64,000 bases of DNA from the NCBI GenBank assembly GCA_965223545.1, contig OZ245006.1, positions 6,624,001 through 6,688,000 of the forward strand, given 5' to 3'. A program made the position numbers and the translations under genes. Below, one piece after another: positions 9,579-50,745 of the stretch (its first letter is position 1; every line of letters begins with the position of its first letter). This stretch comes from Planctomycetota bacterium. GTDB taxonomy: Bacteria; Planctomycetota; UBA1135; UBA2386. The notes beneath the pieces were generated by a model. That model was not told the origin of the DNA. It searched no databases and worked only from the letters and a program-made list of their open reading frames with translations.

Positions 9579-9777
9579 CTCAGCGCGGCCGGGGCCGCAA
9601 CCAAACACGGATGCCGCTCTTGCCGGAGCGGGTTGGAAGGCCGGACACATCCGCCGCCGCGCTGAGCCAGGAGGCACTGTCTCTCCGAGCCTCCGGCGCG
9701 GCGGCGTTGTCGCCATGGCAGCGACGTCGCCTCGAAAATGTTGTCGAAGCTCGAAGATTCGAGGCGCCGGAGGCTCA
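9579..9777 (-). repeat. TGAG-bounded two-hairpin repeat, copy 1 (A1+B1), 195-bp period, in frame inside the SnoaL gene
   Basis: CTCA at 9579-9582 and 9774-9777; near-identical to the reverse complement of 50346-50544; removal restores GDAV|RYCE. Confidence 0.92.
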
Positions 9778-10297
9778 CCGCGTCACCGGGTGTGCCGCAG
9801 CCACTCAGTCGTGCGGTCCAGGCGCTCGCGTTGTGTCCCACCCCAGGCTCGTGCTGGATCAGGTCCTCGGCGACGAAGTCTGCGATGCGGTCCAGAGCCC
9901 GGCCCACGAGTACCTCGGCGGCGAACTCGGCGACGACGGCCTTGTTTCGGTCCGTGCTCTCCAGATCGAGGGTCTGGGTTGGCCCGTCCGCCTGCGATGC
10001 GTCCTCCCACGGAGCGATGACGTCCCAGTGTTCGACGATGAGGTCGTTCTCGTCGGTGTCGAACAAGTCGGTGGTCAGCCACCGCGCTTGACCCTGATTC
10101 AGGATTTGGCCGACGTGGCAGAACACGTACCGGCCATCCTCGATGGCGCGGATGACTCGAATGTCCCGGTGGGGGGTGCGCTGCACGAACGGCTCGAAGA
10201 ACGCGACGAAGCCTTCGACGCCATCGGCGACTCCGGTCGAGTGCTGCGTGTAGCGGGCACCGGTGTACTTCGTGACGGCCTCGCGAACGTTGCCGTC

Positions 10298-11543
10298 AAA
10301 ACTGCAGCCCTTCCGTGGGCCTGGCTAGCTGAGAGACGCTGACCGAGACGTAACCGGAGCCCTCTTCCGAGTCACTGGAAGTGACGCAGGGCCAACTGCG
10401 CAACGGTGCCCTTTTGGTCCCCCCCGCGTTGTGTCTCGGAGGTCGCCGATGTTCGTTCCCCCGCGTTGCCCCAACTCAGCTTGCCCGCACAACCGCAGCC
10501 CGCGGCCCGGCTTCTTCGTACGCCGTGGCTACTACTACCCCAAGTGCCGCGCCCAAGGCGTGCCGCGCTTTCGCTGCCGCCATTGCCGGCAGGGCTTCTC
10601 GCGGCAGACGTTCCGCATGGATTACCGCGACCACAAGCCCGACCGCAACGCCTGGATCGTCATGTTGCTCTGCTCTGGCCTGGGCCTGCGACAGACCGCA
10701 CGCCTCACCGGGCTCACGGCGCGCAACACCGAGATGAAGTTCCGCAAGATCGGTCGCCACGTCCGCCGCCTGAACAACAACTTACGGGGTGACCTGCCGG
10801 TCGGCTCGAGCTTGCAGTTCGACGAACTCGAGAGCTACGAGGGCCGCCGCAACACGCGGCCCCTGACGCTGCCTGTCTTGATCGAGCGCGGGAGCCGCTT
10901 CATCCTCGCAGCGCGGTCGGCCCCGATCCGCCCCGGTGGCCCCAAACCGGCTGCGCGCCGGCGAGCGATAGAGGCCGACGCGCGGCGGTTTGGCCGGCGG
11001 CCGTCGCGGTCGCGCGCGGCAACGCGCAATGCGCTGTGCCGGGGCGCGCGCGCTTGCACTCGGTTGACCACCGTGTTGCTCGAAACGGACGAGAAAACGA
11101 CCTACTCAGGACTCGCGAGGGGCATTTTCGGCGCGCGGCTCGAGCACCGGCGAACACCAAGCACGCTGCCGCGCGAGACCTGGAATCCGCTGTTCGCGAT
11201 CAACCATACCGAGGCAATGGCGCGCGACCTCAACGGTCGTCTGCGGCGCGAGTCCTGGCTGGTCAGCAAGAAGCGCTGTTTCCTCAACCTGCAGCTGCAC
11301 ATCTACACCGCGTACCGCAACTTCACGCGACCGCGCTTCAACTTCGACCGAGACACGCCGGCGATGCTGGTTGGCTGGCTGCCCCAGAAGTTGCGGCTGA
11401 ACCAGGTGCTATCCTGGCGCCAGGACTGGGGCACGCGCAGCGGCCATCCGCTGGATCGAAACGCAAAACCGATCGAGAACTTCCTGAAGAGCTCTGCCTG
11501 ACTTTCTTGCGGCCGTGCCGGACCACGGAAGGGCTGCAGTTCG
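10298..11543 (+). mobile_element. Insertion sequence, IS1-family-like, 1246 bp
   Basis: Terminal IRs AAAACTGCAGCCCTTCCGTGG / CGAACTGCAGCCCTTCCGTGG (19/21); direct repeat GTTGCCGTC at 10289-10297 and 11544-11552; internal transposase. Confidence 0.93.
10449..11501 (+). CDS. Transposase (zinc ribbon + HTH + DDE-like core in one ORF)
   Basis: CPNSAC...RFRCRHC zinc ribbon, GLGLRQTARLTGL HTH, QFDELE and TDEK acidic motifs, RDLNGRLRRESWLVSKK resembling the IS1 InsB C-terminal signature. Confidence 0.88.
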   Translation: MFVPPRCPNSACPHNRSPRPGFFVRRGYYYPKCRAQGVPRFRCRHCRQGFSRQTFRMDYRDHKPDRNAWIVMLLCSGLGLRQTARLTGLTARNTEMKFRKIGRHVRRLNNNLRGDLPVGSSLQFDELESYEGRRNTRPLTLPVLIERGSRFILAARSAPIRPGGPKPAARRRAIEADARRFGRRPSRSRAATRNALCRGARACTRLTTVLLETDEKTTYSGLARGIFGARLEHRRTPSTLPRETWNPLFAINHTEAMARDLNGRLRRESWLVSKKRCFLNLQLHIYTAYRNFTRPRFNFDRDTPAMLVGWLPQKLRLNQVLSWRQDWGTRSGHPLDRNAKPIENFLKSSA

Positions 11544-11686
11544 GTTGCCGTCGCGGATTCCCGACATGTAGAGAGCAATCGCGTGATCGAGCTTGCGGGT
11601 CACAGCGTTCTCCAACGGGCTTCGGGTGAGGGGAGGCGGTGGGCGAGATCCGCGCTGGATTCGCAATAGACAGGGAGCCCGAAGTG

Positions 11687-11701
11687 CGTGCATAATACAC
11701 G
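11687..11701. promoter_or_regulatory. Putative MarR operator overlapping a -10-like CATAAT
   Basis: Imperfect palindrome CGTGCAT-A-ATACACG between the divergent SnoaL and MarR genes. Confidence 0.55.
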
Positions 11702-11729
11702 GAGTTGGCTCCCGTGACCCAGGCGGCGT

Positions 11730-12179
11730 ATGACGGTGCGGATCGACCCGAGAGCATCACCGGGATTTCTTGTGGGGCGCGTCGCCCACGAGCTGAAGCT
11801 CAAGGTTCAGGCATTCCTCGATGCCGATGGCATTGCGCAGTCGGCCGAAGAGATCAGTATCCTGACCGTGCTGGCGCACTTGCAGCGACCGCATCGGATG
11901 AGGCCGCTTGGGCGTCTGCTCGGCAGAGATCCGACCACCGTCAGTCGTCAAGTGGCGAGCCTCGAGCGAGCGGGTCTGGTCCGGCGCTCGTCGTCCCCTG
12001 GCGATCGTCGAGCCGTCCAGGTTGACTTGACGCGCCGTGGTGCACTGTTGGTCGAGCGCACGATGCCCCGGACTCTGGCGCTCCGACGCCAGGCCTTACA
12101 GGGCCTCGCGAACGAGGACCGCGAGACACTCGTCAGATCCCTGCAACGCATGTTGCACAACCTTCGCGCGCAGGAGTGA
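11730..12179 (+). CDS. MarR family transcriptional regulator
   Basis: DPTTVSRQVASLERAGLVRR...DRRAVQVDLTRRG winged-helix signature. Confidence 0.92.
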   Translation: MTVRIDPRASPGFLVGRVAHELKLKVQAFLDADGIAQSAEEISILTVLAHLQRPHRMRPLGRLLGRDPTTVSRQVASLERAGLVRRSSSPGDRRAVQVDLTRRGALLVERTMPRTLALRRQALQGLANEDRETLVRSLQRMLHNLRAQE

Positions 12180-12508
12180 CTCGAGTGTCAACGCTGAAGA
12201 TCTTCGTCGCGGTAGCCTTCTTCGCAGCGGGTGGAGCCAAGCTGGCGACCGCGAAGCCGCTCCTCGACCAATTCCGCGAGTTCGGCCTTCCGCGTGTGGC
12301 GATGTATGTGGTCGGTGCGCTGGAGATCGCCGGCGCCATCGGCTTGTTCGTCGAGGGGGTCGCTCCGTGGGCAGCGCTTGGGCTGACGGCTTTGATGGTG
12401 GGAGCCGTTGCCAACCATCTCAAGGCGAAGCACGCGTTCGGCAAGTGCGCGCCTTCGGCCGTGCTCGCGGTGCTGACGGCTGTCCTGGTTCTGATGCTCT
12501 GGGAGTGA
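12176..12508 (+). CDS. DoxX-like membrane protein
   Basis: AGGAKL, VGALEIAGAIGL, MVGAVANH; four hydrophobic segments. Confidence 0.85.
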   Translation: MTRVSTLKIFVAVAFFAAGGAKLATAKPLLDQFREFGLPRVAMYVVGALEIAGAIGLFVEGVAPWAALGLTALMVGAVANHLKAKHAFGKCAPSAVLAVLTAVLVLMLWE

Positions 12509-12566
12509 CCGCCGAGCGTACCCGTCGGGGAGCGCGAGAGCGGCAGGCTGCGTCGGCGCACATGGC

Positions 12567-13055
12567 CTATCCACGAGCCAGCAAGCGCAGGCGGCGCAAG
12601 TGCTCGGCCCAGGTCTCGCCGAGGCTCCGCAGGAAGGGCGTGACGTCGGCGCCGTGGCGCACCGGATGGTCGGGGCGCAAGCTGGCCCAGCCGCGGTGCT
12701 CGACGGTGACCTTGGTCGCCTCGGCAGCTGCATCGGTCGGGTGGAAGGTGACGTCGACCACCGTTTCCTCGTCTTCGGCGAAGTTCGGTCCCCGCCAGCT
12801 GAAGGTCAGTCGCTCACCCGGCACCCACACGCGGATCGTGCCGACCACGTAGAGCTCGGGCGTCTGGCCGTCGGCGTAGGCCTCGACGAGTCGGCCGCCC
12901 ACGCCTGGCTCGAACCGCAGCCGTCCATCGCGGCCGGGGCTGAACTGGTAGGCAGGGCCGCGCTTCCACCACAGTCCGATCTCTTGGGTGAACAGATCGA
13001 ACGCGGCCGGCGGCGCGAGGGGTACGGTGGTCGAAACGCGCGCGAAGTCGCTCAC
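12567..13055 (-). CDS. SRPBCC/AHA1-like domain protein
   Basis: AFDLFTQEIGLWW, FEPGVGGRL, WVPGERLTFSW, TKVTVEHRGW; GTGA overlap with the ArsR stop. Confidence 0.88.
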   Translation of the reverse strand: MSDFARVSTTVPLAPPAAFDLFTQEIGLWWKRGPAYQFSPGRDGRLRFEPGVGGRLVEAYADGQTPELYVVGTIRVWVPGERLTFSWRGPNFAEDEETVVDVTFHPTDAAAEATKVTVEHRGWASLRPDHPVRHGADVTPFLRSLGETWAEHLRRLRLLARG

Positions 13056-13402
13056 TTTCGTTGCCGGCGTGCATGCGCCGCGAATGCGTTCAGCTGGTCG
13101 CTCCAGAACGCTTCGACTTGGTCGAGCCAGGCGCGCAGGGCGACGAATGGTTCGCGTCGTAACCGGAACACGCGCACGCGGGCGTCGTCCGCGATGCGGT
13201 CGGCGGAGGCGACTCCAGCTGCGCACAGCACCTTGAGGTGGCGGCTGATCGCGGCCGGCGGCTTGCCGAGCAGGTCTGCCAGCTCGCCGGCGCGGAGGGG
13301 GCGCCGGCGAAGGTGTTGGATCAGTGCCCGGCGCGTCGGATCGCCCAACACGGTGAACAGGTCGTGGACTTGGTCCCGGTCTCGCGAGCGCAGTCGCGTC
13401 AT
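13052..13402 (-). CDS. ArsR/SmtB family regulator
   Basis: FTVLGDPTRRALI, AGELA, ISRHLKVL, WLDQVEAFW. Confidence 0.9.
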   Translation of the reverse strand: MTRLRSRDRDQVHDLFTVLGDPTRRALIQHLRRRPLRAGELADLLGKPPAAISRHLKVLCAAGVASADRIADDARVRVFRLRREPFVALRAWLDQVEAFWSDQLNAFAAHARRQRK

Positions 13403-13836
13403 GTGCTGCGGTGCTCGGCGGCGCGGCGGCGCATCTCTTCGGGGTCTACGTCTTCGATGTGGGTGGCGACCCACCAGAAGTTGCCTTGTCGATCGCTTAC
13501 CCCAGCGCTGCGGTCGCCGTAGAACTGGTCGGTAGGCGGGTAGATGGTCTGTGCGCCCTGCGCCAGCGCGCGTTCGTAGACCGCGTCGACGTCTTCGACG
13601 TACACGTACAGCGAGCTGGGGATCGGCTTCCACTGATCGCGGGCCTGGCCCAGCATCACCACCGAGTCGCCGATGCGGATCTCGGCGTGCGCGATCTCGC
13701 CACCCGGGAGCTCGATCAGCTCGTGCTCCACCGCGCCGAAGACGTCGCGGGTGAAGGCGATGGTGGCCCGGATGTCGGGGACGATCACGTACGGCGTGAC
13801 GGTGTTGTAGCCGTCGGGGATGGGGGAGACGGTCAT
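13399..13836 (-). CDS. VOC/glyoxalase (PhnB-like) protein
   Basis: IPDGYNTVTPY, HAEIRIGDSVVML, DQFYGDRSAGVSDRQGNFWWVATH. Confidence 0.92.
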   Translation of the reverse strand: MTVSPIPDGYNTVTPYVIVPDIRATIAFTRDVFGAVEHELIELPGGEIAHAEIRIGDSVVMLGQARDQWKPIPSSLYVYVEDVDAVYERALAQGAQTIYPPTDQFYGDRSAGVSDRQGNFWWVATHIEDVDPEEMRRRAAEHRST

Positions 13837-13856
13837 GGGAGCGGAGGGTAAACTAA

Positions 13857-13872
13857 TTGACAATATTGTCAA
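13857..13872. promoter_or_regulatory. Perfect 16-bp palindrome TTGACAATATTGTCAA, probable ArsR operator
   Basis: AT-rich palindrome 20 nt upstream of the VOC-ArsR-SRPBCC operon. Confidence 0.7.
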
Positions 13873-13945
13873 ATATTGATGCGGAAAGAAAATTGAGCGG
13901 ATCAGTCCGTGGTTGGCGTCGCCGGCGCCGTTTAGGCTGCGCGGC

Positions 13946-15325
13946 ATGCATGCGTCGGCGCTGGCACCCCTGCTGTGGGTGGTGGTCTCGGTCTCGTTGT
14001 GCGGCGCCGCGCCGTGCGCCCAGCATCCGCGGGTGTTGTTCCTGACGCACTCGGCGGGATTCGAGCACGCCGTGGTCAAGCGCGTGCAGAAGGGCCGCGC
14101 CGCGGTGGCCGAGAAGGCGTTGAGCGACGCAGCCCGCGGCCAATTCGAGGTGGTCGCGAGCCAGGACTGCGGTGTGATCAACGCCCGGGATCTCGCGACC
14201 TTCGACGCGGTGGTGTTCTACACCACCGGCGAGCTGCCGATCGACGAGGTGGGTCGGGCGGCCCTGCTCGACTACGTGCGTGGCGGGGGCGCGTTCGTCG
14301 GTGTGCACTCCGCGACCGACACGTTCTACCAGTGGCCGGAGTACGGTGCGCTGCTGGGTGCCTACTTCGACGGCCACCCGTGGAACCAGGCGGTCGCCGT
14401 GCAGGTCGAGCACCCGCGCCATCCCGCCACCGCGCACTTGGGCGCGACCTGGCGGGTCGCCGACGAGATCTACCAGTTCAAGCAGTGGACCCGCGCCGAC
14501 CACACGGTCTTGCTCAGCCTCGCGCCGGAGGGGGCGGACTTGTCGCGGGGCAAGCGCGCCGACCGCGACTACCCGCTGGCGTGGTGTCACGACGTCGGCG
14601 AGGGGCGTGTGTTCTACACCGCGCTCGGCCACCGTCTCGCGCTGTGGGGGGACCGCGTGTTCTTGCATCACTTGCTCGGCGGCATTCGCTGGGCGATTGG
14701 CGACGAACGCGTGTTGGGCCGGGCTCCAGAGGGAGCCACCGTGCTGCTCGGTGCCGCGCTCCAGCCGAACGCCTGGCAACATCCCGACGGCGAGCCAGTG
14801 CGCTGGCGAGCCGTCGGAGACGGTGACGACCGCGGCCTCGAGGTCGTGCCGAAGGCCGGCAGCATCGTCACCAGGCAGGCCTTTGGCGACTTCCGGCTGC
14901 ACGTCGAGTTCCGCGTGCCGCGAGAATCCGCGGCGGACCGCGGCCAGGCCCGCGGCAACAGCGGCGTCTACCTGCAGCGCCGCTACGAGGTGCAGATCCT
15001 CGACTCGCACGGCCAAGAGCCGCGGGCCGATGGCTGCGGCGCGCTCTACCGCCAACGCGCGCCGGCGCGCAATGCGAGCCGCCCGCCCGAGGAGTGGCAG
15101 AGCTACGACATTTGGTTTTCGGCCGCGCGCTTCGACGAGGCCGGCGAGAAGCTGGAGGACGCGCGCATCACCGTGCTGCACAACGGTTGGCTGATCCACG
15201 ACGACGTTGCGCTACCCGACAAAACCGGCGCTGGCCGGTCGGAGGGCCCTGAGCCCGGCCCGATCCTCCTGCAGGACCACGGCGACCCGGTGCGGTTCCG
15301 CAACGTGTGGATCGAGCCGATGTAG
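13946..15325 (+). CDS. Secreted ThuA-like + DUF1080 (3-keto-disaccharide hydrolase-like) fusion
   Basis: THSAGFEH, GVHSATDT, GRVFYTALGH (ThuA); FGDFRLHVEF, GNSGVY, YEVQILD, LQDHGDPVRFRNVWI (DUF1080). Confidence 0.9.
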   Translation: MHASALAPLLWVVVSVSLCGAAPCAQHPRVLFLTHSAGFEHAVVKRVQKGRAAVAEKALSDAARGQFEVVASQDCGVINARDLATFDAVVFYTTGELPIDEVGRAALLDYVRGGGAFVGVHSATDTFYQWPEYGALLGAYFDGHPWNQAVAVQVEHPRHPATAHLGATWRVADEIYQFKQWTRADHTVLLSLAPEGADLSRGKRADRDYPLAWCHDVGEGRVFYTALGHRLALWGDRVFLHHLLGGIRWAIGDERVLGRAPEGATVLLGAALQPNAWQHPDGEPVRWRAVGDGDDRGLEVVPKAGSIVTRQAFGDFRLHVEFRVPRESAADRGQARGNSGVYLQRRYEVQILDSHGQEPRADGCGALYRQRAPARNASRPPEEWQSYDIWFSAARFDEAGEKLEDARITVLHNGWLIHDDVALPDKTGAGRSEGPEPGPILLQDHGDPVRFRNVWIEPM

Positions 15326-15343
15326 GCGAGCGGCGCCGTCGTT

Positions 15344-16846: not shown

Positions 16847-16887
16847 GGGCTTGGAGCTTACGCCCGAAGCGTCTCCCGTGCCGCGCC

Positions 16888-17463
16888 TCAGATCCCTTTG
16901 AACTCCTCGAAGCTCTGTCCGCTGGCCATGAACACCAGCGATGCAGCCAGCAGCCCCAACCCCACGACTGCGGCCAGCCCGACCAAGCCCCAGCCGAGCC
17001 ACGCTCGACGGTGGCTTTGGTATGCGATGTTGATCAGTCCCTGGATCGCCAGCGGCCAGTTGTAGGGGCCGAGTGCGAGCACCGTGAGAACGGTCCACCC
17101 GTTGAGGGCTGCCGCCGTGCGTCGGGACTGCGGCGAGCACGACGACGCGCGCAGGGTGTGGGAGACGAGCCACCACGAGGGAGCTGCCAGCGCGATTCCG
17201 ATGCCGTAGAGCGCGAGTAGAGAGCCATCTCGCAGAGTGCCCAGAGCCAGCTTCGTGGTGACCGCAAGCAAGTGACCGAAGGCCATGGTGCCGATGGTGA
17301 CGCCGTAGAACAGGTTCATGGCGGCGAGCAATCGCTGCCGGAGCGGGACCCCGGAGCGCTGGCGGTACCACAGAGAAAGCGCCGCCGCGACCAGGGCGGC
17401 GCCGAGGGATACCGGCATCCACCGGCTCTCGTCGACAATCCACTGCAGCACTCGATCGATCAC
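16888..17463 (-). CDS. Hypothetical multi-pass membrane protein
   Basis: Several hydrophobic helices; GTGA overlap with the TetR stop. Confidence 0.7.
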   Translation of the reverse strand: MIDRVLQWIVDESRWMPVSLGAALVAAALSLWYRQRSGVPLRQRLLAAMNLFYGVTIGTMAFGHLLAVTTKLALGTLRDGSLLALYGIGIALAAPSWWLVSHTLRASSCSPQSRRTAAALNGWTVLTVLALGPYNWPLAIQGLINIAYQSHRRAWLGWGLVGLAAVVGLGLLAASLVFMASGQSFEEFKGI

Positions 17464-18128: not shown

Positions 18129-18135
18129 CGGCGTC

Positions 18136-18164
18136 AGTATCATATTGGATGGACATGGTGTCAA
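18136..18164 (-). promoter_or_regulatory. Sigma70-type promoter of the TetR gene, probably leaderless
   Basis: TTGACA-N17-GATACT ending 7 nt before the ATG; GACA-TGG-TGTC dyad overlapping the spacer and -35. Confidence 0.6.
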
Positions 18165-20579: not shown

Positions 20580-20637
20580 CGCCGCCCGGCGTGTGCTTGC
20601 CCCGGCGGCAGTTCCGGCCCACACTCTGCCGCTGCCG

Positions 20638-21348
20638 ATGGCTGCCAAGCACTTTGCCGTTCTGCCGCGGACGATGGGTCGTTGCGGCTCGACGTGGCTC
20701 TGCGATCTGATCGACTCGCATCCCGCCGTCACCTGCCTCGGTGAGGTGTTCAACCCCGGCGAGGCCGCATACTACGGCGCGTTCGCCGATGCCGCCGGCC
20801 CACAGCGCGATGCCGCGGCGCTGTTCGCGGCGATCGAGGCGGCGCGGCCCGGCGCGGCCGCCTACGGCTTCAAGGCGTTCCGCGAGGACCTCGAGACCGA
20901 CGCGCTGCGGCGGATCCTGGCGCATCTGGACGCGGTGGTGTTCATCGAGCGCAAGAACCTCACCCGGGCACTGGTCTCCGAGTTGCACGCCCGCGCGACC
21001 AAGCGCTGGCACTTGCGCGCCGGCGCCGAGCTGCCCGAGGGCTTCTTCGAGCAGCGCATCGAGGTCGACGTCGAGCAGGCCCGCAACCGCCTGCGCAACG
21101 CCGTCGAGACCGGCAGGATCCTCGCCGAGATGGTGGACTCCGCCGGGGTCGCGGCCGTGCGCATCGAATACGAGCAGCTGGTCGCGGCGACCCAAGGCAC
21201 GATGGACGGCGTGTTCGGCGTGCTCGGCGTCGCGCCGCACGCGGTGACGTCGCGGTTTCGCAAGATGCACCAGGGCGTCGACTTCGTCGCCAACCTGGAT
21301 GCCGTCAACGCTGCTTTGGGCGACGAGTTTGGCCAGCTCGAACCCTGA
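20638..21348 (+). CDS. Sulfotransferase (Stf0-like)
   Basis: GRCGSTWLCDLIDSHP (PAPS-binding loop), GEVFNP, RKNLTRALVSE, IEYEQL. Confidence 0.82.
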   Translation: MAAKHFAVLPRTMGRCGSTWLCDLIDSHPAVTCLGEVFNPGEAAYYGAFADAAGPQRDAAALFAAIEAARPGAAAYGFKAFREDLETDALRRILAHLDAVVFIERKNLTRALVSELHARATKRWHLRAGAELPEGFFEQRIEVDVEQARNRLRNAVETGRILAEMVDSAGVAAVRIEYEQLVAATQGTMDGVFGVLGVAPHAVTSRFRKMHQGVDFVANLDAVNAALGDEFGQLEP

Positions 21349-21547
21349 GCCTCCGGCGCCTCGAATCTTCGAGCGGCGACAACATTTTCGAGGCAACGCC
21401 GCTGCCATGGCAAAGTCGCCGCCGCGCCGGAGGCTCGGAGAGACAGTGCCTCCTGGCTCAGCGCGGCTGCCGGCGACCGCGGGACCCGCGACCGACGCTC
21501 GGGTCGCGGAATGCTCCGTGTTTGGTTGCGGCCGTGGCCGCGCTGAG
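21346..21547 (+). repeat. TGAG-bounded two-hairpin repeat, copy 2 (A1+B2), 198-bp period
   Basis: TGAG at 21346 (its TGA is the sulfotransferase stop) and at 21544; stems GAGCCTCCGGCGC/GCGCCGGAGGCTC and GCTCAGCGCGGC/GCCGCGCTGAGC. Confidence 0.92.
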
Positions 21548-26630: not shown

Positions 26631-28400
26631 TCAGCCGTGGGCCAGCATGCGCGCGTAGCACCCATCCGCCCGCGCCAGCTGCTCGTGCGTGCCGCGCTCG
26701 ACGATGCGGCCGTCCTGCATGACGAGAATGCGATCGGCGCGGCGCACCGTCGACAGGCGGTGGGCGACCACCAGCGCGGTGCGGTGCTGCAGGACGCGGC
26801 GCAGTCCTGATTGGATCGTGGCCTCGCTGTCGCTGTCGATGCTGGCGGTGGCCTCGTCGAGGATCAGCAGGTCGGGGTCGTGCACCAGCGCGCGGGCGAA
26901 CGACAGCAGCTGCCGCTGCCCGACGCTGAGAGTGGCGCCGCGCTCCTGCACCGGCGCTCGCAGGCCGCCGGGGATCGCCGCGACGATGTCGTCGGCGCCG
27001 ACCGCCGCCAGCGCCTGCCACGCGCGGTCTTCGTCGATGCTGTCGTCGAACAAGCGCAGATTGTCGAGGATCGTGCCGCTGAAGAGTACGACCTCCTGCG
27101 GCACTACGGCGACGCGCCGCCGCAGGCCGTTGAGATCGAGAGTCGGCAGCGGCGCTCCGTCGAGCAGGACGCGGCCGGCGGTGGGGTCGTCGAGCCGGGA
27201 GGCCAGCGCCAGCACGGTGCTCTTGCCCGCACCGGTCGGGCCGACCAGGGCGACGTTCTCGCCGGGGCGGACCTCGAACGAGACGTCGTGCAGGACGCGG
27301 CGGTCGCTGCCGTAGGCGAACGAGACCGCGTCGAACGTCAGGTGTGCGGCCGCGCGCGGCTGCGCCTTGGGCTCCGCCGGTGGCGCCGGGTGGCGGGGTT
27401 CGTCGAGGATCGCGAACAGGCGCTCGCAACTCGACATCGCGCTCTGCAGCACGTTGTACTTCTCGCCGAGCTCGCGGATCGGCTCGGTGAGCCGGTTGTA
27501 GTACAGCCAGAACTGGACGAATGCGCCGGTGCTGAGCGCGCCGTGCAGGATGTCGTGGGTGCCGATGGCGAGGATCGCCACCTGACCGAGGCGCAGGCTG
27601 CCGTCGACCAGCGCGACGAATAGGGCGAACTGCGCCACCGTGCGCAGCCACGCGTCGCGGGTGGTGTGGTTGTGGGCGGTATAGCGGTCGGCGACGCGCT
27701 GCTCCGCGGTAAACAGCTTGGCCACCCGCACGCCACCGATCGCCTCGGCGGCGTAGCCGTTCTGCGCGCCGAGTGCGTGCCGCACCGCGCGGTAGGTCAG
27801 CCGCACGCCAGCGCGGAAACGCAGGCTGATACCGATCAACAGCGGCGTCAGCAGGACGGTGACCAGCGCCAGCCAAGCGTCGATCCAGAACAGCACGGCG
27901 AGGGTGCCGAAGATCTTCAGCAGGTCGAACAGCGCCTGCAGGACGCCGGTCGAGATCAGCTCGTTGAGGTTCTCGACGTCGGCGGTGACGCGGGTCACCA
28001 GGCGGCCGGCGGCGTGCCGGTCGTGGAAGCGCGGGCTCACCGACAACAGGTGTTCGAACAGCGCGCAGCGCATATCGCGGATGACGCGTTGGCCGGCCTT
28101 GGCGGTGAGCATGGCGTAGCCGAAGCCGAGGGCGACTGCCGCGAGCGTGACGGCTGCGTAGGCCAGCGCCAGAGTGGTCAGGCCCTGCAGCGCGTCGGGC
28201 GCGCCGCCGACCGCGGCGGCGATGGGGCCGTCGATGGCGCGGCGCACCAGGTAGGGGCCGACGACCTCCAGGCCGAACGACACCAGCAGGATCAGCAGGC
28301 TGACGGCGAACGCGCGCCGGTAGGGGCGGACGAACGGCCACAACCGTCGCAGATGACGCAGCTCGAAGGTGCCCTCGTCACTGTCGGGCCGGGTGCTCAT
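26631..28400 (-). CDS. ABC exporter, fused TMD-NBD (heterodimer half 2)
   Basis: GPTGAGKS, LSVGQRQ, LLILDEATASID, VVAHRLST; start ATG 28400. Confidence 0.92.
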   Translation of the reverse strand: MSTRPDSDEGTFELRHLRRLWPFVRPYRRAFAVSLLILLVSFGLEVVGPYLVRRAIDGPIAAAVGGAPDALQGLTTLALAYAAVTLAAVALGFGYAMLTAKAGQRVIRDMRCALFEHLLSVSPRFHDRHAAGRLVTRVTADVENLNELISTGVLQALFDLLKIFGTLAVLFWIDAWLALVTVLLTPLLIGISLRFRAGVRLTYRAVRHALGAQNGYAAEAIGGVRVAKLFTAEQRVADRYTAHNHTTRDAWLRTVAQFALFVALVDGSLRLGQVAILAIGTHDILHGALSTGAFVQFWLYYNRLTEPIRELGEKYNVLQSAMSSCERLFAILDEPRHPAPPAEPKAQPRAAAHLTFDAVSFAYGSDRRVLHDVSFEVRPGENVALVGPTGAGKSTVLALASRLDDPTAGRVLLDGAPLPTLDLNGLRRRVAVVPQEVVLFSGTILDNLRLFDDSIDEDRAWQALAAVGADDIVAAIPGGLRAPVQERGATLSVGQRQLLSFARALVHDPDLLILDEATASIDSDSEATIQSGLRRVLQHRTALVVAHRLSTVRRADRILVMQDGRIVERGTHEQLARADGCYARMLAHG

Positions 28401-28596
28401 CGCGGCCACCGCCGCAAACACGGAGCGATCCGCGACTCGAGCGTTGGTCGCAGATCCCGCGGTCGCCGGCGGCCGCGCTGAGCGCAGACGCCAGTGTTGC
28501 TTTCGAGCCTCCGGGAGTTGCGTTGTCGAATTTCCAGCGGCATCGAGCCTTCGGAAAGGCTGTCGCCGCGCGAAGATCCTCGGCCCCGGATGCTCA
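28396..28596 (-). repeat. TGAG-bounded two-hairpin repeat, copy 3 (diverged A2+B2), 197-bp period, between the ABC genes
   Basis: CTCA at 28396 and 28593; aligns by eye to the reverse complement of 50541-50745 with a 4-nt deletion. Confidence 0.88.
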
Positions 28597-30339
28597 TTCG
28601 AGTTGGTCCCGCGCCCGGTCGCGCTGCAGGGCGGCGATCGCCGCGTACTGGCCGCCGCGGCGCAGCAGCTCTTCGTGCGTGCCGCGCTCGACGATGCGGC
28701 CACCGTCCAGCACCAGGATCTCGTCGGCGGCGGCGACCGCCGACAGTCGGTGGCTGGCGATGATGCGCGTCTGGGCCGGCCGGTGGATACGCAATCGGTC
28801 GAGGATCCTGGCCTCGGTGCGGTGGTCGACCGCCGACAGCGTGTCGTCGAGCACCAGCACCGGACGGTCGGCCGCGAGCGCGCGCGCCAGCGAGACGCGC
28901 TGCTTCTGTCCGCCCGACAGCGTCACTCCGCGTTCGCCGACGATGCTGTCGAGGCCCTGAGGGTAGGCGTCGAGGTCCTGGTCGACCGCGCTGGTGTGCA
29001 CCGCGGCGGCGACGGCCGCGGGGTCGCCGCCGCCGAACGCGATGTTGTCGCGCACGGCGTCGCCGAACAGGAACGGATCCTGCGGGGCGCAGGCGAATGC
29101 GCTGCGCACCGTGTCGCGCCGCAAGCGCAGCACGTCCTCGCCGTCGAGGAAGACAGTCCCCGGCGGCGGACGGTAGAGCAAGGTCAGCAGCGCCAACAGA
29201 GTCGACTTGCCGGAGCCGATGCTGCCGACCAAGCCCAGGGTCTGCCCCGGTTGCAGCCGAAGGTCGATTCCAGCCAATGCCGGCCGCGGGCTGTCGGGGT
29301 ACGTATACGACAGGTCGCGCACCTCGAGTGCGCCGCGAACGCGGAGCTCGAGCTCGCCGTCCTGTTCGGGTGTGGCTTGCAGCAGCTCGTCGATCCGCGC
29401 CGCGGCGGCGAACGCGCGCTGCACTACCGCCGCGATCCAGCTCGCTGCCAGCAGCGGCCAGACGACGATGCTGGTGAGGCCCAAGAACTGCACCAGCTCG
29501 CCGACGGTCAGCCGCCCCGCCATCGCTTCCCGGGCGCCGAAGACCAACACGGCAAGCACGACGAGCTCGCGGCTGGTGTGGATCAGCAGGTTGATCCACG
29601 CCCGCACGCGGGCGAGGCCGACGTTGTGGCCGAGATACGCATCGGCCAGCTGTCGCATCGCCTCGGCCTCGATCGGTGCGCGGCCGAAGGTCAGCAGCAC
29701 GCGCACTCCGCCGAAGTCCTCGGCGGCGCGCTGCGAGATCGCACCGATGGCTTCCTGGGCTGCGGTGCTGTGCCGGTGCAGGCGCGGCAACAAGATCGCG
29801 AGACCGCCGAGCAAGATGCCGAACGACAGCGTCGCGGCCAGGCAGACCGACGCCGACAGCGAGGCCATCAGGTAGATCGCGCCCGGCACGACGACCAGCG
29901 ACGCGCCGCCGTGCAGCAGCGCGGGGCCGACGACGAAGCGCACCAGCTCGACGTCTTGGGTGAAGCGGCTGATCACGTCGCCGGTGCGGGCGCGGTCGAA
30001 CCAGGTCGCCGGCAGCCGCAACAACCGGTGCATCAGCCGGTCCTTGAGCGTCGCCTCGGCGCCGCGCGATGCGTCGATCAACAGCCGCCGCGCAGTGTAG
30101 CGCAGTCCCGCCTCGGCGATCCCGCAGAGCCCCACGGCGGCCGCCAGCTCCAGCAGCGTGCGCCAGCGCGGCCCGATCGCCCCGTCCGACGCGGCCAGGT
30201 CGACGGCGTGTCCGACCAGCATCGGGATCGCCAGCAGCGCCGCCGCGGCGGCGGGCACGCAGACGAGGCCGAGCGCGACCCGCGCGCGGTGTGGTCGCAG
30301 TAAGGCCTGCGCCAGGCGGAACAGTGGGGGCACGGTCAC
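28594..30339 (-). CDS. ABC exporter, fused TMD-NBD (heterodimer half 1, degenerate Walker B)
   Basis: GSIGSGKS, LSGGQKQR, VLVLDDTLSAVD. Confidence 0.92.
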   Translation of the reverse strand: MTVPPLFRLAQALLRPHRARVALGLVCVPAAAAALLAIPMLVGHAVDLAASDGAIGPRWRTLLELAAAVGLCGIAEAGLRYTARRLLIDASRGAEATLKDRLMHRLLRLPATWFDRARTGDVISRFTQDVELVRFVVGPALLHGGASLVVVPGAIYLMASLSASVCLAATLSFGILLGGLAILLPRLHRHSTAAQEAIGAISQRAAEDFGGVRVLLTFGRAPIEAEAMRQLADAYLGHNVGLARVRAWINLLIHTSRELVVLAVLVFGAREAMAGRLTVGELVQFLGLTSIVVWPLLAASWIAAVVQRAFAAAARIDELLQATPEQDGELELRVRGALEVRDLSYTYPDSPRPALAGIDLRLQPGQTLGLVGSIGSGKSTLLALLTLLYRPPPGTVFLDGEDVLRLRRDTVRSAFACAPQDPFLFGDAVRDNIAFGGGDPAAVAAAVHTSAVDQDLDAYPQGLDSIVGERGVTLSGGQKQRVSLARALAADRPVLVLDDTLSAVDHRTEARILDRLRIHRPAQTRIIASHRLSAVAAADEILVLDGGRIVERGTHEELLRRGGQYAAIAALQRDRARDQLE

Positions 30340-41268: not shown

Positions 41269-41306
41269 CGTGCGCCGCGGATGATACCGCGCTACGCTCT
41301 CGGCCC

Positions 41307-45074: not shown

Positions 45075-46552
45075 GCCGACAGGAGCCGCGGCTGGCGTCG
45101 CCCGACGAGCTGGGCCAGCTGGTGCACCAGCTGGGCAACGGTCCGGTGCTGGTGATCGGCGACTTGATCCTCGATGGCTACATCGAGGGCTCGGCGCGGC
45201 GCGTCTCGCCGGAGGCGCCGGTGCTGGTCTTCGAGACCGAGGCGCAGCGCCACCTGCTGGGGGGTGCGTGCAACGTCGCGGCCAACCTGGTGTCGCTCGG
45301 CGCGCAGGCGTCGGTGCTGGGGGTGATCGGCGAGGACGTGCCCGGCCAGCAGCTGGTCGATCTGCTCGTCGCCGAGGGCATCGACGTCGACCCGGTGGTC
45401 CGCGATCCGTCGCGGCCGACCACCCGCAAGACGCGCTACGTGAGCAAGACCGCGCAGGTGTTGCGCGTCGATCAGGAGCGCCGCCATCCGCTGGAAGGTG
45501 CCGCCGAGGAGCACGCCTTGGCGGTGCTGGCGCAGCGGCCGTTCCCCTTTCCCGCGGTGTTGTTGAGCGACTACGGCAAGGGCATGCTGACCCGTCGAGT
45601 CATCCAGGCGGCGATCGAGGCGGCGCACTCGGCGGGCGGCATCGTCGTCGTCGATCCCAAGGGGACCGACTACACGATCTACCGCGGCGTCGATCTGCTG
45701 ACGCCCAACCGCGAGGAGGCCGAGGCGGCGACCGGCGTGCGCATCGATGGCGTGCACGATCTGCCGCGGGTGGCGGAGGTCTTGCGGCAGCACACCGGGG
45801 TGCGCACCGCGACCATCACGCTCGGCAAGGACGGGATCTACTTCGAGACCGAGGCGGGCGCCGGGCGGACCATTCCGACGGTGGCCAAGGCGGTGTTCGA
45901 CGTCACCGGCGCCGGCGACACGGTGGTCGCCGTGCTCACGCTGGCGCGCGCCAGCGGTCTGTCGCTGCCGCACGCGCTGCAGCTCGCCAACCTCGCCGCC
46001 GGCGTCGTCGTCGGCCGCTTCGGCACCTGGGCGGTGTCGCGCAGCGAGCTGCTGTCGGTGCTGGGCCAGGCCGACCCCGGCAAGATCTTGACGCGGCCGG
46101 AGGCGGTGTCGATCGCCGCACGGCTCAACGCCGAGGGGCGGCGGCTGGCGTTCACCAACGGGTGCTTCGACCTCCTGCACCCCGGCCACACCGAGTACTT
46201 GGCGCGGGCGCGGAGCTACGGCGACGCGCTGATGGTCGGCGTCAACACCGACGCCAGCGTGCGGCGGCAGAACAAGGGCGATGACCGGCCGATCGTCGGT
46301 CTGCCGGACCGCATGGCGGTGTTGGCCGCCCTGGCGGCGGTCGACTACGTGGTGCCGTTCGACGAGGACACGCCGCTGGACTTGATCCGCGAGGTGACCC
46401 CGCGGGTCCTGATCAAGGGCGAGGACTGGCGCGACAAGGGGGTCGTCGGCGGCGATTGGGTCGAGGCGCACGGCGGCCAGGTGGTGCTCGTTCCGCTGCG
46501 GGAGGGCTGCTCGACCACCGCGATCATCGAGCGCATCCGCCGCGGCGGCTGA
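45071..46552 (+). CDS. hldE: Bifunctional ADP-heptose synthase (kinase + adenylyltransferase)
   Basis: RVSPEAPV, LGGACNVA, SDYGKG, VVDPKG, DVTGAGDTV; FTNGCFDLLHPGH, LIKGEDW. Confidence 0.95.
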   Translation: MSRQEPRLASPDELGQLVHQLGNGPVLVIGDLILDGYIEGSARRVSPEAPVLVFETEAQRHLLGGACNVAANLVSLGAQASVLGVIGEDVPGQQLVDLLVAEGIDVDPVVRDPSRPTTRKTRYVSKTAQVLRVDQERRHPLEGAAEEHALAVLAQRPFPFPAVLLSDYGKGMLTRRVIQAAIEAAHSAGGIVVVDPKGTDYTIYRGVDLLTPNREEAEAATGVRIDGVHDLPRVAEVLRQHTGVRTATITLGKDGIYFETEAGAGRTIPTVAKAVFDVTGAGDTVVAVLTLARASGLSLPHALQLANLAAGVVVGRFGTWAVSRSELLSVLGQADPGKILTRPEAVSIAARLNAEGRRLAFTNGCFDLLHPGHTEYLARARSYGDALMVGVNTDASVRRQNKGDDRPIVGLPDRMAVLAALAAVDYVVPFDEDTPLDLIREVTPRVLIKGEDWRDKGVVGGDWVEAHGGQVVLVPLREGCSTTAIIERIRRGG

Positions 46553-46674
46553 CGCGCGGCGGGCGGCGCGGTTCGACCAAATGTGTGCGGCGCCACCGTA
46601 ACGGTGGGGCCGTTTTGGTTCCTCTGCAGGAAAGGGGCTGCTCGTTGCCCCGAACCTCCAAGGGAGAACACTCG

Positions 46675-49600
46675 ATGCAAGCCTCGCTCCGTACGCGTTG
46701 CGGCGCGCTGTGTGTCTCGGCCGCCTTCGTCGCGGTCGTTGATGTCGCGGCGATGCAGCCGAACAACCTCGTGCCCTATCCCGCGGTGACCACCACGCCC
46801 GCGGATGTTCCCAATCTGTTCGCCGAGCCGTTCACCGGCATGGCGCTCGACAGTCAGAACCGGCTGTTCGCGGTCAACACGCACGGCAGCACGCTGGTGC
46901 GGGTCGACTCCAGCGGCACGGTGTCCTTCGGCACCGGCCTCAACCCTGTCTCGGTCGCGGTCGTCGAGCGCCTGGGCGAGATCAAGGTGGCGGTGGTCTG
47001 CGCCGGCACGCACGCGATGTTGTTGCACGACGCGGCGAGTGGACGGATCGAGAACGTTCGCAGGCTCGACTCCGAGCCAGCGGACATCGTCTACGACGAC
47101 GAGCGCGAGCTGGCGTTCGTCACCTGCCGCGGCGAGAACACCGTGCTGCAGTTCGATCCGCTGAGCTTCGGCGCCGCGCCCGTGTCCTACAGCATCGAGT
47201 GTGGCCAGCGGCCGGGGTTTCTGTACTTGGACCGCGGCGATCCCGGGGTCGCCGACAACCGCGTGCTGTTCGCCGCGTCGGTAACCGGCAACAACACCAC
47301 CAACATGGTGCCCGCCGGAGAGGACCCGAACGACGGCATCGTCTTCGATCTGACCGGCAACCCCGGCGGTGAGCTCGACGATTTCGATATCTACCGGATC
47401 GATCCGGGGTCCGGGACGGTGGAGCCGGCGGTGACGGGCGTCGGCAGCCTGATCTTCGATTTCGCGCGCGCGCCGCAGCCGCCACACGGTCTCTGGGTGT
47501 TGAGTACGGACAGTCTGAACGCCGACCCCGCGCGGCAGAGCGAACCGGCGTTGCGCGGCAACTTCGTCATCAACCAGCTCGTCGTGGTGCCGGGAATCCT
47601 GCCGGTCGGGCCGGTGGCCGCCCCGCCGGGCGTCGACCTCGACGACACCCAGCCCGGCGTGTCGGGTCCGCAGTACGACGCGTGCCAGGCGATCAATCAG
47701 GCGCGGGCGCTGGAGTTCTTCGAGGGCGGCGCGTTGGTCGCCAGTCCGTTCCAAGATCGCATCTACCGGATCGCCGCCGACGGCAGCCGCAGCTTCACCT
47801 ACTACCTGCAGCCGGGATCGCAGTGCTACGACGTGCTGGATGTCGGCAACGGCTTCTTCGCCGCGCTGTGCCTCGGCACGCAGAACATCGAGATCTTCAA
47901 GTGGGATCAAGTGTGGCGCGTGCTCAGCTACCCGCTGGGCTACGACCCGACGCCGGAGCAGATCCGGCGGGGCCGCGACGTGTTTCTAGATGGCCGGATC
48001 TCGCAGGACGGTCGCTCCAGCTGCGCGTCGTGCCACGCCGGCGGTGGCTCGGACCAGCTCGGCTGGCAGCTGTCGAGCCCGCCCAACGACACCAAGGACG
48101 TGATGGTGACGCAGAGCCTGTTCGGCATCGCCGACACGTTTCCACACCACTGGCGCGGGGAGCGCGACCTGGCCGACTTCCAGGGCGCGTTCCAAGGGCT
48201 GTTGGGAGCTCCGGCGACGGCACAGCCCGGGTCGTGCGAGCAGCCCCTCTCCGACCAGAACATGATCGACGTGATCGCGTTCATGCAGTCTCTGACCGCG
48301 CCGGCCAGTCCGTACCAACACCCGACGCGCCAGGTCGACGGCGATGTCGTGACGCCGCCGATCGACGGCAACGACCCCTTGCCGGCCGGTGACCCGGTGC
48401 AGGGTGTGATCGACTTCCTCACGGTGCCGATCCCGGGTGAGGACAACATCACTTGCGCCGATTGCCATCACATCAAGACCGGGAGTGACGGCAACGCGTT
48501 CGATGTCAATGGTGGCGCGATCCCGCGTTCGACGACCACGGAGGTCGCGCACTTGCGGCAGATGCAGAACAAGGGCCGCCGCATGAAGGTGATCGGGTTG
48601 CCGTTGGCAGGCGGGGCGATGGTTCCGACCGACGTCAATGACAACGGCTTCGGCTTCGGCCACGGCGGTGAGTTCGGCACTCTGCGGACCTTCGTCGAGG
48701 CGTTCAGCCTGTCGCCGTCCGCGACGGCGAACATCATCGCCTTCCTCGAGCAGTTCGACCAAGGCCTGTCGGCCGCCGCGCACTGGGTCGAGTGGTTCGA
48801 CGCGCCGGCGGCGGCGGCGGGTCCCGCGGTGCGCGATCGCATCGAGGACTTTCTCATCGACGGAGCCGATCTCGACTGGAGCGACTTGGCGGTCGTCGGC
48901 CGCACGATGATCAGTGGCTCGATGCAGTCGATGCGCTGGTGGTTCGATCCGAACGCGGGAGCCAACGGGGAGTTCGTGCCGGAAACCACCGCGCAGCCGT
49001 CGATCACTTGGGGACAGATGGAGGCGGACGTGGCCGCGGGGACGACCGAGGCCGCGTTCATCGGGCTGCCACCGGGAGCCGGTCCGCGATTCGCGATCGA
49101 CTACGACGGCGACGGCGTGCGCAACGGCGATGACAGCCTGCCGTACGAGCCGACCTACGGGGGGCCGAGTGCTCTCCCCGCGCTCTTGTCCTGGAAGGTC
49201 GATCTGGAGACTGCGCGGCTCGGCAAGCTGCACCTCGAGTTCAGTGAGGAGGTGACCTACTCGATCGACTACCGGGCGCGGGCCAAGGGGGCTGGCAGCC
49301 CCGGACCGCTGCGCACGGCTACGCGCGAGGACTACGTAGTGCGCGATGCCGCGCATCTGCAGCACGCCGAGCCCGGCTTCCCCGACATTGGCGGCCAGCA
49401 GAGCATCGTCGAGTTCGACGCGTGGATCACCTTCACCGACCGCGATGGCAATCAGGTCAGCGGGTTCAAGCTGGAGACCGCGCCGGGTCTACCGACGTTC
49501 GTGTCGCTGCCGTTCTTTCCGGTCGGCGACACCCAGCGCGAGCCCAAGCTGTACCACATCCAGGACATTTCCCTAGTCTCCGCGAATCGGCTTGGCAGTG

Positions 49601-50082
49601 GCGTCCGGGTCAAACTGGACGTCGAGGTGCGTATGCACCGTGGCGCGCCGGACTTCGACGTCCCCGCCGTGCCGCAGATGGTGTTCTTCACGCTGGCCCA
49701 CAATCAGACGCCCAGCGGCGACTTCGAGCAGTCGCAGGTCGGGATGGCCGGTGTCGGTAGCTACACGACACCGCACGCGACGCGCTTTCGGGTGAACTCC
49801 TCTGGACCGCCCTATCCGTACTACGACGAGACGCCCGGCGAGCCGTGGATCGTCTCCGAGTTCACCGGGGTCTTCGATCCCTTGCGGCCCGGGCTAACCC
49901 GTGTGGAGTTCAACATCTACAACCTCAACGCAGGCTCCGTAGCACGGTTGTCGGCGATGGGCATCTACCCGAACAGCGGCGTGCCCACGCTGCCGCCGAT
50001 CTACGACGCGACCCACCTGCAGGAGCCGTTTCAGATGCTGTTGACCGAGGAGCACTCGCAGATCGACGTGATCATGCCCTGA
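46675..50082 (+). CDS. Large secreted beta-propeller + di-haem cytochrome c protein
   Basis: Signal peptide, YVTN-like blades (GLNPVSVAV, SEPADIV), SCASCH and TCADCH haem motifs, DYDGDGVRNGDD Ca-binding-like loop. Confidence 0.82.
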   Translation: MQASLRTRCGALCVSAAFVAVVDVAAMQPNNLVPYPAVTTTPADVPNLFAEPFTGMALDSQNRLFAVNTHGSTLVRVDSSGTVSFGTGLNPVSVAVVERLGEIKVAVVCAGTHAMLLHDAASGRIENVRRLDSEPADIVYDDERELAFVTCRGENTVLQFDPLSFGAAPVSYSIECGQRPGFLYLDRGDPGVADNRVLFAASVTGNNTTNMVPAGEDPNDGIVFDLTGNPGGELDDFDIYRIDPGSGTVEPAVTGVGSLIFDFARAPQPPHGLWVLSTDSLNADPARQSEPALRGNFVINQLVVVPGILPVGPVAAPPGVDLDDTQPGVSGPQYDACQAINQARALEFFEGGALVASPFQDRIYRIAADGSRSFTYYLQPGSQCYDVLDVGNGFFAALCLGTQNIEIFKWDQVWRVLSYPLGYDPTPEQIRRGRDVFLDGRISQDGRSSCASCHAGGGSDQLGWQLSSPPNDTKDVMVTQSLFGIADTFPHHWRGERDLADFQGAFQGLLGAPATAQPGSCEQPLSDQNMIDVIAFMQSLTAPASPYQHPTRQVDGDVVTPPIDGNDPLPAGDPVQGVIDFLTVPIPGEDNITCADCHHIKTGSDGNAFDVNGGAIPRSTTTEVAHLRQMQNKGRRMKVIGLPLAGGAMVPTDVNDNGFGFGHGGEFGTLRTFVEAFSLSPSATANIIAFLEQFDQGLSAAAHWVEWFDAPAAAAGPAVRDRIEDFLIDGADLDWSDLAVVGRTMISGSMQSMRWWFDPNAGANGEFVPETTAQPSITWGQMEADVAAGTTEAAFIGLPPGAGPRFAIDYDGDGVRNGDDSLPYEPTYGGPSALPALLSWKVDLETARLGKLHLEFSEEVTYSIDYRARAKGAGSPGPLRTATREDYVVRDAAHLQHAEPGFPDIGGQQSIVEFDAWITFTDRDGNQVSGFKLETAPGLPTFVSLPFFPVGDTQREPKLYHIQDISLVSANRLGSGVRVKLDVEVRMHRGAPDFDVPAVPQMVFFTLAHNQTPSGDFEQSQVGMAGVGSYTTPHATRFRVNSSGPPYPYYDETPGEPWIVSEFTGVFDPLRPGLTRVEFNIYNLNAGSVARLSAMGIYPNSGVPTLPPIYDATHLQEPFQMLLTEEHSQIDVIMP

Positions 50083-50150
50083 AGGTGGTGTGACTCGGCG
50101 CCCGGGGCATTCTGCGAGGCGATCTGCGGCATCGCGGCGTTCCGGGGCGG

Positions 50151-50745
50151 CGAGCCTCCGGCGCCTCGAATCTTCGAGCTTCGACAACATTCTCGAGGCG
50201 ACGCCGCTGCCATGGCAACGGCGCCGCGGCGCCGGAGGCTCGGAGAGACAGTGCCTCCTGGCTCAGCGCGGCGGCGGATGGGGCAGGCCTTCCAAGCCGC
50301 CCCGGGAAAAGCGGCATCCGAGTTTGGTTGCGGCCGCGGCCGCGCTGAGCCTCCGGCGCCTCGAATCGTCGAGCTTCGACAACATTTTCGAGGCGACGTC
50401 GCTGCCATGGCGACAACGCCGCCGCGCCGGAGGCTCGGAGAGACAGTGCCTCCGGGCTCAGCGCGGCGGCGGATGTGTCGGACCTTCCAATCCGCTCCGG
50501 CGAGAGCGGCATCCGAGTTTGGTTGCGGCCGTGGCCGCGCTGAGCCTCGGGGTCCGAGAATGTTCGAGCGGCAACAACCTTTCGGAAGGCCCGTCGTCGC
50601 CGGGACTTCGATACCGCAACTCCCGGAGGCTCGAAGACAACACTGGCCTCCGGGCTCAGCGCGGCCGCCGGCGACCGCGGGACCCGCGACCGACGCTCGG
50701 GTCGCGGAATGCTCCGTGTTTGGTTGCGGCCTCGGCCGCGCTGAG
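50151..50745 (+). repeat. Tandem array of three two-hairpin repeats (A1B1, A1B1, A2B2; periods 195, 195, 201 bp)
   Basis: Unit boundaries CGAG 50151, TGAG 50346, 50541, 50742. Confidence 0.93.

Follow-up and report, generated by a model that had tools for sequence, protein, structure and literature searches.

A TGAG-bounded repeat unit is described here from a 64,000-nucleotide stretch of the genome of a Planctomycetota bacterium (GCA_965223545.1, contig OZ245006.1, positions 6,624,001 to 6,688,000; hereafter the window), which contains six copies of it. Each unit is composed of two hairpin modules, A and B, separated by a linker. When its ends are compared with those of insertion sequences (IS) in other genomes, the unit is shown to share both ends with a 1.7-kb IS encoding a protein of a family here called YDK. 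The repeat is a gene-less miniature that is probably moved in trans by this 515-aa protein, a predicted tyrosine nickase of the Rep_trans type. The genome (G000) is 8.1 Mb long with 70% G+C and consists of a main contig, C1, and a second contig, C2.

Ends shared with the YDK insertion sequence

The two ends of the unit are best seen in the second copy of the tandem array in the window:

50346..50436 (+): left-end stem, with the TGAG core and CCTCCGG paired with CCGGAGGCTC; its design and first 8 bases are those of the downstream end of the YDK insertion sequence of genome G501.
50516..50544 (+): right end, composed of TTTGGTT, the hairpin GCGGC-loop-GCCGC, GC and TGAG; this is the conserved part of the superfamily.

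The YDK family came to light when this genome was scanned for the motif, and at L291, a locus of G501. At L291, AGTTTGGTTGCGGC-TAC-GCCGCGCTGAG stands directly before an internally deleted YDK gene, and the unit reads AGTTTGGTTGCGGC-CGTG-GCCGCGCTGAG; the L291 end and the right end of the unit have 25 identical bases and a different loop. The G501 relics L386, L388 and L390 end in TGAG-CCTCTCC-GCA-GGAGAGGCTCA, which is the left-end design of the unit, and their end stem (TGAG-CCTC-stem-GAGGCTCA) resembles that of its left end. One of these relics sits at a stop codon; L386, a deletion form of 769 nt, retains both ends. The two closest-matching G501 ends sit on different relics. Near-full YDK copies are found in G023 (five measured, 1718-1723 nt) and G042 (1715 nt), flanked by TGGG on one side and by TGGG or TGAG on the other, with no inverted repeats. 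At the left they begin with TGGG-TCCCTGAGGCC, an end similar to that of the mini units in G069 and G071. Both ends of the unit are therefore common to elements that carry the YDK gene, namely the G501 relics and the G023 and G042 copies. The unit likewise lacks terminal inverted repeats (TIRs): TGAG-CCTCCGG at the left and GCCGCGC-TGAG at the right each pair with their own inner arm.

At least six near-identical YDK elements lie between TGGG cores in G023 (L372, L377, L378, L383-L385) and are mostly frameshifted; one G023 YDK element splits an integrase-like gene.

The YDK protein

The YDK protein is approximately 515 aa in length and has 2849 relatives at E<=0.001, all of which are labelled 'hypothetical'. 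None of the four YDK proteins searched matched a Pfam or NCBIfam family, including PF02486, for which this genome also provided no match, and no PDB sequence match was obtained beyond a weak winged helix. The invariant residues include K-x-Y in a strand, LRxE and RxEG. A structural model built from 50 relatives (pLDDT 90.5) gave as its top Foldseek rows the initiator RepSTK1 (4cij; E 0.002, probability 0.99, TM 0.36, rmsd 11.9 A), with RepDE lower, and a wide fold search returned the TATA-binding-protein fold at Z 8.2 over YDK residues 6-389. The cores of Rep_trans proteins resemble the TATA-binding-protein fold. Of the Rep_trans motifs given in the available text of PMC5714925 (RxD, T/SxY/ExG, YxKxxE and W/LxRxE), YxK and LRxE are present in YDK.

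The model and these motifs point to YDK being likely a tyrosine nickase of the Rep_trans type. The Rep_trans initiators and MOB_T relaxases (PF02486; RepSTK1 4cij, RepDE 4cwe) are its best Foldseek match and also have the tyrosine in a beta strand followed by LRxE. YDK differs from them in having no PF02486 match, in its length of 515 aa with a C-terminal winged helix, and in standing alone between IS-like ends rather than on a plasmid or an integrative and conjugative element. Canonical PF02486 genes, present in 11 of 91 family genomes, were considered as the mover and rejected, as they are without unit ends.

Insertion target and arrays

Among outer ends, TGAG is present at 67 of 74 on the left and 65 of 70 on the right, with scant conservation beyond, so that target specificity amounts to about four bases. 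An earlier note on this DNA, made from the sequence alone, had described TGAG on both flanks of the copies. This TGAG is not a duplicated core: a variant core occurs on one side in 12 of 121 units and on both sides in none of the 12. In relatives of the unit the outer cores match in 6 of 23 cases, where 4.2 are expected under independence. In G018, eight of nine outer-left TGAG cores close a frame of 244-444 codons, whereas the right end is CGGG or TGGG in seven of nine units; because of this contrast, the left core is read as host DNA and the right core as the element's own. The unit is thereby shown to insert behind TGAG without duplicating it.

The same note had proposed a non-autonomous element that is moved in trans at TGAG and rebuilds its own target, giving rise to arrays. 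Both parts are supported, the latter by 60 of 162 TGAG left ends that follow the right end of another copy. In 26 arrays, 20 of the 39 neighbour pairs differ by at least 20%, as do window units 2 and 3. Slippage cannot produce pairs this divergent; a new insertion, or recombination in the conserved junction, can do so.

The unit is itself a target. It is hit by two IS110 families, of which 10 of 11 and 4 of 4 copies lie at fixed positions within it, and its right end (50516..50544) is the landing site of the 11-copy family.

Copies in the window

The six copies lie where the earlier note had placed them, in single copies at 9579-9777 (-), 21346-21547 (+) and 28396-28596 (-) and as a tandem of three at 50151-50745 (+), with the periods 195, 198, 197, 195, 195 and 201. 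The left core is TGAG in five of the six and CGAG at 50151, and the right core is TGAG in all six; GTTTGGTTGCGGCC is present in five. The hairpin-A stem described for every copy, GAGCCTCCGGCGC...GCGCCGGAGGCTC, is found in four, and the copies at 28396 and 50541 have instead an A module of a second type, the stem of which is also paired. Modules are numbered below by type.

9579..9777 (-): unit, 195-nt period, A1+B1; in frame within a SnoaL-like gene, to which it adds about 65 codons.
9395..10186 (-): SnoaL-like open reading frame (ORF) carrying this unit; its first ~56 codons are severed by an IS1-like element at about 10300-11510.
21346..21547 (+): unit, 198, hybrid A1+B2; its left TGA is the stop of ORF 20593-21348 (weak sulfotransferase match).
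28396..28596 (-): unit, 197, A2+B2; between two ABC-transporter genes, its left TGA being the stop of 28594-30339.
50151..50349 (+): array unit 1, 195, A1+B1; left core CGAG, intergenic.
50346..50544 (+): array unit 2, 195, A1+B1; 9.5% divergent from unit 1.
50541..50745 (+): array unit 3, 201, A2+B2; 34% divergent from unit 2 and a separate insertion at its right end.

Eight homologous SnoaL-like proteins lack the inserted stretch at exactly the place of the 9579 copy, which provides an empty site at the protein level. At the 28396 copy, the right end ATGAG supplies an ATG (28400-28398) in frame with the next ABC-transporter gene, from which we infer that the two genes had a stop/start overlap at this site before the insertion. 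As the earlier note had stated, no mobiliser is encoded inside the window, and the local IS has its own ends. This IS1-like element exhibits a weak match to NF033558 and has 11 copies in the genome. Run X2 has no cover across 9797-9967, which is left uninterpreted.

Another copy of the IS1-like element interrupts a unit at C1:66051-67296. A second repeat family (GTACGGAGCCAGGCTCC type) is represented in the window at 51411-51507 by a perfect inverted repeat of 48 bp. It is targeted by a 23-copy IS110 and also flanks the Y1 gene at C1:3914532.

Position relative to genes

Placement was scored against 5960 genes predicted with our own uncurated hexamer model. By this gene set, the 102 outer-left TGAG ends are composed of 62 at stop codons, 36 in intergenic regions and four inside genes (three antisense, one sense), and the 28994 other genomic TGAG sites of 1593 at stop codons, 3902 intergenic, 14486 antisense and 9013 sense within genes. 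Stop codons are thus enriched 4.3-fold relative to intergenic sites (odds ratio 4.3), part of which could be accounted for by selection against promoter insertions. Most predicted genes (4534 of 5960) stop at TGA, so that an insertion behind TGA-G does not disrupt the gene; copies that land inside genes are probably eliminated.

The earlier note had explained gene tolerance by unit lengths divisible by three, and this idea did not hold. Since 62 of the 102 ends lie at predicted stops and four in genes, the unit is tolerated by its position and not its length. Multiples of three make up 96 of 121 near-full units, which corresponds to two subtypes plus their hybrids; among relatives they are 6 of 27 units in G018, and the period in G009 is 188. 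The sole sense, in-frame case among the 102 is the 9579 copy, whose host gene is also cut by an IS. The frequent in-frame presence in intact genes that is typical of the Rickettsia elements is therefore not found among these 102 ends. All three plus-strand frames are open in 86-94 of the 96 in-frame units, which is not significant against shuffled sequences (P = 0.06-0.12, four representatives).

The family in the genome

A blastn search (E<=1e-4) identified 167 merged loci on contig C1, and nhmmer returned 231 hits; 121 near-full units are present in the genome. Their periods are 195 (43 units), 201 (42), 198 (9) and others (27). Modules A1 or A2 combine with B1, B2 or B3, chiefly as A1B1 and A2B2, and hybrids occur. 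The median divergence of a unit from its nearest neighbour is 2.9%, and eight units have an identical twin, which argues for a fairly recent spread.

Folded as single-stranded DNA (ssDNA), one unit gave z = -4.8, with none of 200 shuffled sequences as stable. The two outer stems are 96% paired over 26 aligned units, with two-sided changes in 5 of 20 pairs; this alignment contains related sequences, and the count therefore carries no probability. A minus-strand REP model, with a TGAG tag and a central hairpin, was rejected, as the covariation in the linker is that of a small local hairpin. No Rfam family was found at gathering score around the window array.

No multi-copy IS with unit ends was found in the genome. 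An autonomous copy was sought among pairs of left-only and right-only fragments and was rejected, all of these being split by IS110, the IS1-like element or ordinary genes. The second contig, C2 (39.6 kb), is phage-like by eye, with protease/capsid, tape-measure and terminase-like ORFs, and contains no unit.

Relatives in other Planctomycetota

The right-end hairpin is the marker of a superfamily that extends across the Planctomycetota. Its exact motif occurs 112 times in this genome, 45 times each in G069 and G071, 30 times in G018, 7 times in G073 and 4-6 times in G045, G046, G048 and G070, with 0-1 matches for the reversed control. Any strict match is found in 30 of 251 genomes, mostly as single chance matches; 20 single-copy matches in other genomes are chance matches within genes. 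A looser pattern occurs in 75 of 391 genomes of the phylum, again mostly singly, with clusters in G624 (32), G573 (10) and G501, G660 and G671 (5 each), in which the same right end is joined to varied left parts. No match to the motif was found in plasmids, and viral scans gave 0 and 1 chance match, with no YDK relative. A search of 90 genomes with a sequence-only model found only G009 (5) and G018 (1), an undercount because 27 candidates were scored per genome.

The related units are 138-189 nt in length and keep the same order: core, left stem with an inner arm complementary to the core, linker, right stem and a core of YGRG. The G009 units have the core ATGAG and, to match it, the arm CTCAT; at three of four sites the sequence continues into an apparent start codon. 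In distant Planctomycetota, the right-end hairpin also stands alone or follows very different hairpins, AT-rich or made of heptamer repeats (L319-L322, L331-L336, L339-L368). This suggests one-ended movement or many separate miniatures.

Proposed mechanism

In the proposed mechanism, the plus strand of the unit would be lifted as ssDNA, from just behind the left TGAG through the element's own right TGAG. Either as a closed circle or without this intermediate, the lifted strand would then be joined to the 3' side of a new TGAG (YGRG in the relatives). Transfer may run from the left end to the right hairpin, the opposite polarity being the alternative, and the inner arm of the left stem, complementary to the core, may guide the choice of target. 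Mini-loops of the GNA or GNNA type are found on the plus strand of 21 of 27 G018 units and on the minus strand of 2 of 27, which favours the plus strand as the moving DNA. GNA and GNNA loops are stable in DNA. Each copy supplies at its right end a new TGAG in a suitable context; later copies, those of other subtypes included, would land there and build mixed arrays.

Movement of this kind would be like that of IS91 or IS608 with another class of enzyme. IS91/ISCR elements and Helitrons also have no TIRs, make no duplication, use a tyrosine nickase akin to plasmid initiators and have unequal ends with a hairpin at one of them, according to the available text of PMC5714925. Their own enzymes are HUH (Y2) proteins, whereas YDK has no HUH motif among its invariant residues and is Rep_trans-like; the unit has no sequence link to the local IS91-like ends. 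In the IS200/IS605 group, the available text of PMC5934647 describes for IS608 a left tetranucleotide that stays in place and a right end that is the element's own, and the unit is likely to share its single-stranded movement. The unit differs in that its left core is base-paired into the foot of a stem, where IS608 keeps the core apart from its hairpin, and in that no Y1 TnpA with unit ends was found. The tetranucleotide CAAC, the CAxC guide predicted by the cross-pairing rule of IS608, is common in the linkers at inconsistent positions and was not used.

Evidence against the proposed YDK mover and competing explanations

Several observations weigh against a YDK enzyme as the mover. This genome has a single, dead YDK copy (C1:1927722-1929200), which is interrupted by a stop and a frameshift and has lost its 3' part. 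Its surviving end is of the same design with the core TAGG; having another core and hairpin and lacking the far end, this copy is a relative of the unit and not a shown parent. The YDK gene was found in 6 of 91 family genomes and in one of five repeat-rich genomes given a profile search, and it was undetected in G018, G071, G573 and G624, in which the end motif occurs 30, 45, 10 and 32 times. Foldseek gave only a weak match, with no hit at E<=0.001, and in the wide search the C-terminal winged helix fills the list, with no Rep_trans among 50 rows; RxD and the E of YxKxxE are absent from YDK. The mini-loop strand bias of G018 is not seen in this genome (65 vs 53 of 121), and the units have no leading/lagging (replication-strand) bias. 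No movement, circle, excision or enzyme activity was observed, nor any DNA-level empty site among the genomes compared, all of them from other genera, and no joint removing a unit was found for three copies among the matches listed in contigs of X1, X2, X4, X5, X6 and X7. The counts at stop codons depend on an uncurated gene set. The last such point is a full, TGAG-bounded relative in G018 (L174:1270-1462) that lies 3 nt before the ATG of the only PF01797 gene of that genome.

This last arrangement favours the reading that an HUH Y1 transposase (RAYT/TIRYT or IS200-like), acting from another locus of the genome, moves a REP- or BIME-like element, which we consider unlikely. Like the unit, IS608 inserts 3' of a tetranucleotide and finishes at the right in a tetranucleotide of its own (available text of PMC5934647), and this genome has 14 PF01797 matches, 12 of one family, of which 8 have a hairpin module starting after TGAG. 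The Y1 gene at L174 is flanked by TIRs, and the unit is placed between the upstream repeat and the ATG; the same variant forms an array at L104. The single G018 case may nevertheless be due to chance, given the approximately 50 gene-border loci and several candidate genes examined, and no unit stands beside any of 26 other listed loci of this gene type, most of which have short, unrelated TIRs. PF01797 was not found in G069, G070 and G071 (85-89% complete), and the 12-copy family was rejected as the mover, as it was not found in G018, G069 and G071. The units share no end sequence with Y1 elements, unlike with YDK elements, and the GTAG or CGTC tag is absent from the 26-unit alignment. Unit ends are absent at the 14 Y1 genes here, save for one fragment of the central hairpin just upstream of the copy at C1:5691132, and in 30 Y1 loci, and no unit is found within 30 kb of two TIR-type Y1 genes of this genome. 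The 12-member Y1 HUH gene family (C1:2260076 and 11 similar) has its own hairpin modules after TGAG, and several members have a group II intron end beside them.

The unit resembles the REP, BIME and REPIN families with their RAYTs in several respects: more than 100 extragenic hairpin copies, tandem clusters, location downstream of genes and use as an IS110 landing pad are described in the available texts of PMC8266576, PMC3733652 and PMC3116915. The unit differs in having no GTAG/CGTC tag and no inverted pair of short REPs, in its strand-oriented four-base target and in the absence of a RAYT from several carrier genomes; TGAG does not occur in the available text of PMC3733652. Bacterial miniature inverted-repeat transposable elements (MITEs), the Rickettsia palindromic element and the Caulobacter CIR are similar in being non-coding, below about 200 bp and derived from an IS or sharing its ends, and in their open reading frames and occasional fusion to genes in frame; CIR has two stem-loops and no TIR, according to the available text of PMC2229807. 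The unit differs from these in having no TIR, TA ends or duplication, in its rare in-frame insertion (1 sense of 102) and in a partner that is not a DDE transposase.

A host-selected RNA structure at 3' ends, a terminator or stabiliser spread by recombination or gene conversion and not by transposition, would explain the sense orientation at stop codons (62 of 102), the strong folding and the module hybrids, which show that copies have recombined. It is very improbable in view of the exact four-base boundaries, the gene-interrupting copies, the mixed arrays, the ends shared with an IS and the lack of an Rfam family, although transcripts may be affected secondarily.

The lack of TIRs, the short direct repeat and the tandem arrays would also suit a miniature of the IS110 family that has TGAG (or AG) as its core and is mobilised through a circle by a bridge recombinase, and 38 PF02371 matches in three IS110 families are present in the genome. 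This explanation is given hardly any weight, as none of the three families has TGAG ends, two of them insert into the unit and the third into another palindrome, the target comprises about four bases, and left and right cores differ within single copies. RAYT/IS200 and IS110 enzymes, to which the earlier note had pointed as possible movers, fit worse than the Rep_trans-like YDK family. Genes for tyrosine and serine recombinases are not next to copies.

That a Y2 HUH transposase moves the unit as a miniature of an IS91/ISCR element is equally remote: IS91 makes no duplication and has no inverted repeats (available text of PMC5714925), PF04986 is present in 52 of 91 family genomes and a 21-nt left-end stub abuts a local broken IS91/ISCR-like element (G000:C1:4549579, -), but this remnant has ends of its own that bear no relation to the unit, no stub stands at the start of a second remnant, and 20 Y2 loci contain no right-end motif.

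Implications for Planctomycetota

The evidence describes a real mobile repeat family, tied to a probably undescribed class of transposase. Neither the repeat nor a Rep_trans-type transposase is described in the literature searched, with most subscription papers, supplements and ISfinder outside its scope. Many bacterial repeat families have no known mover; this one is tied by both ends and by deletion intermediates to a candidate IS. In this assembly the parent enzyme is dead or gone, so that the family may now be silent or reliant on an incoming IS.

The relatives provide a natural series of changes in the core (TGAG, ATGAG, TGGG) together with its pairing arm. If pairing sets the target, this would be a second natural chemistry of DNA-guided single-strand integration beside that of IS608. 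Landing behind a stop codon is a way to spread without breaking genes, and the repeat is in turn a safe site for two RNA-guided IS110 families. On balance, we lean towards a wider picture in which such units are miniature passengers of a Rep_trans-type nickase system that moves single-stranded elements, with a four-base target paired to a stem arm, and that would have seeded stop-hugging repeats across the Planctomycetota as RAYTs seeded REPs in Proteobacteria.

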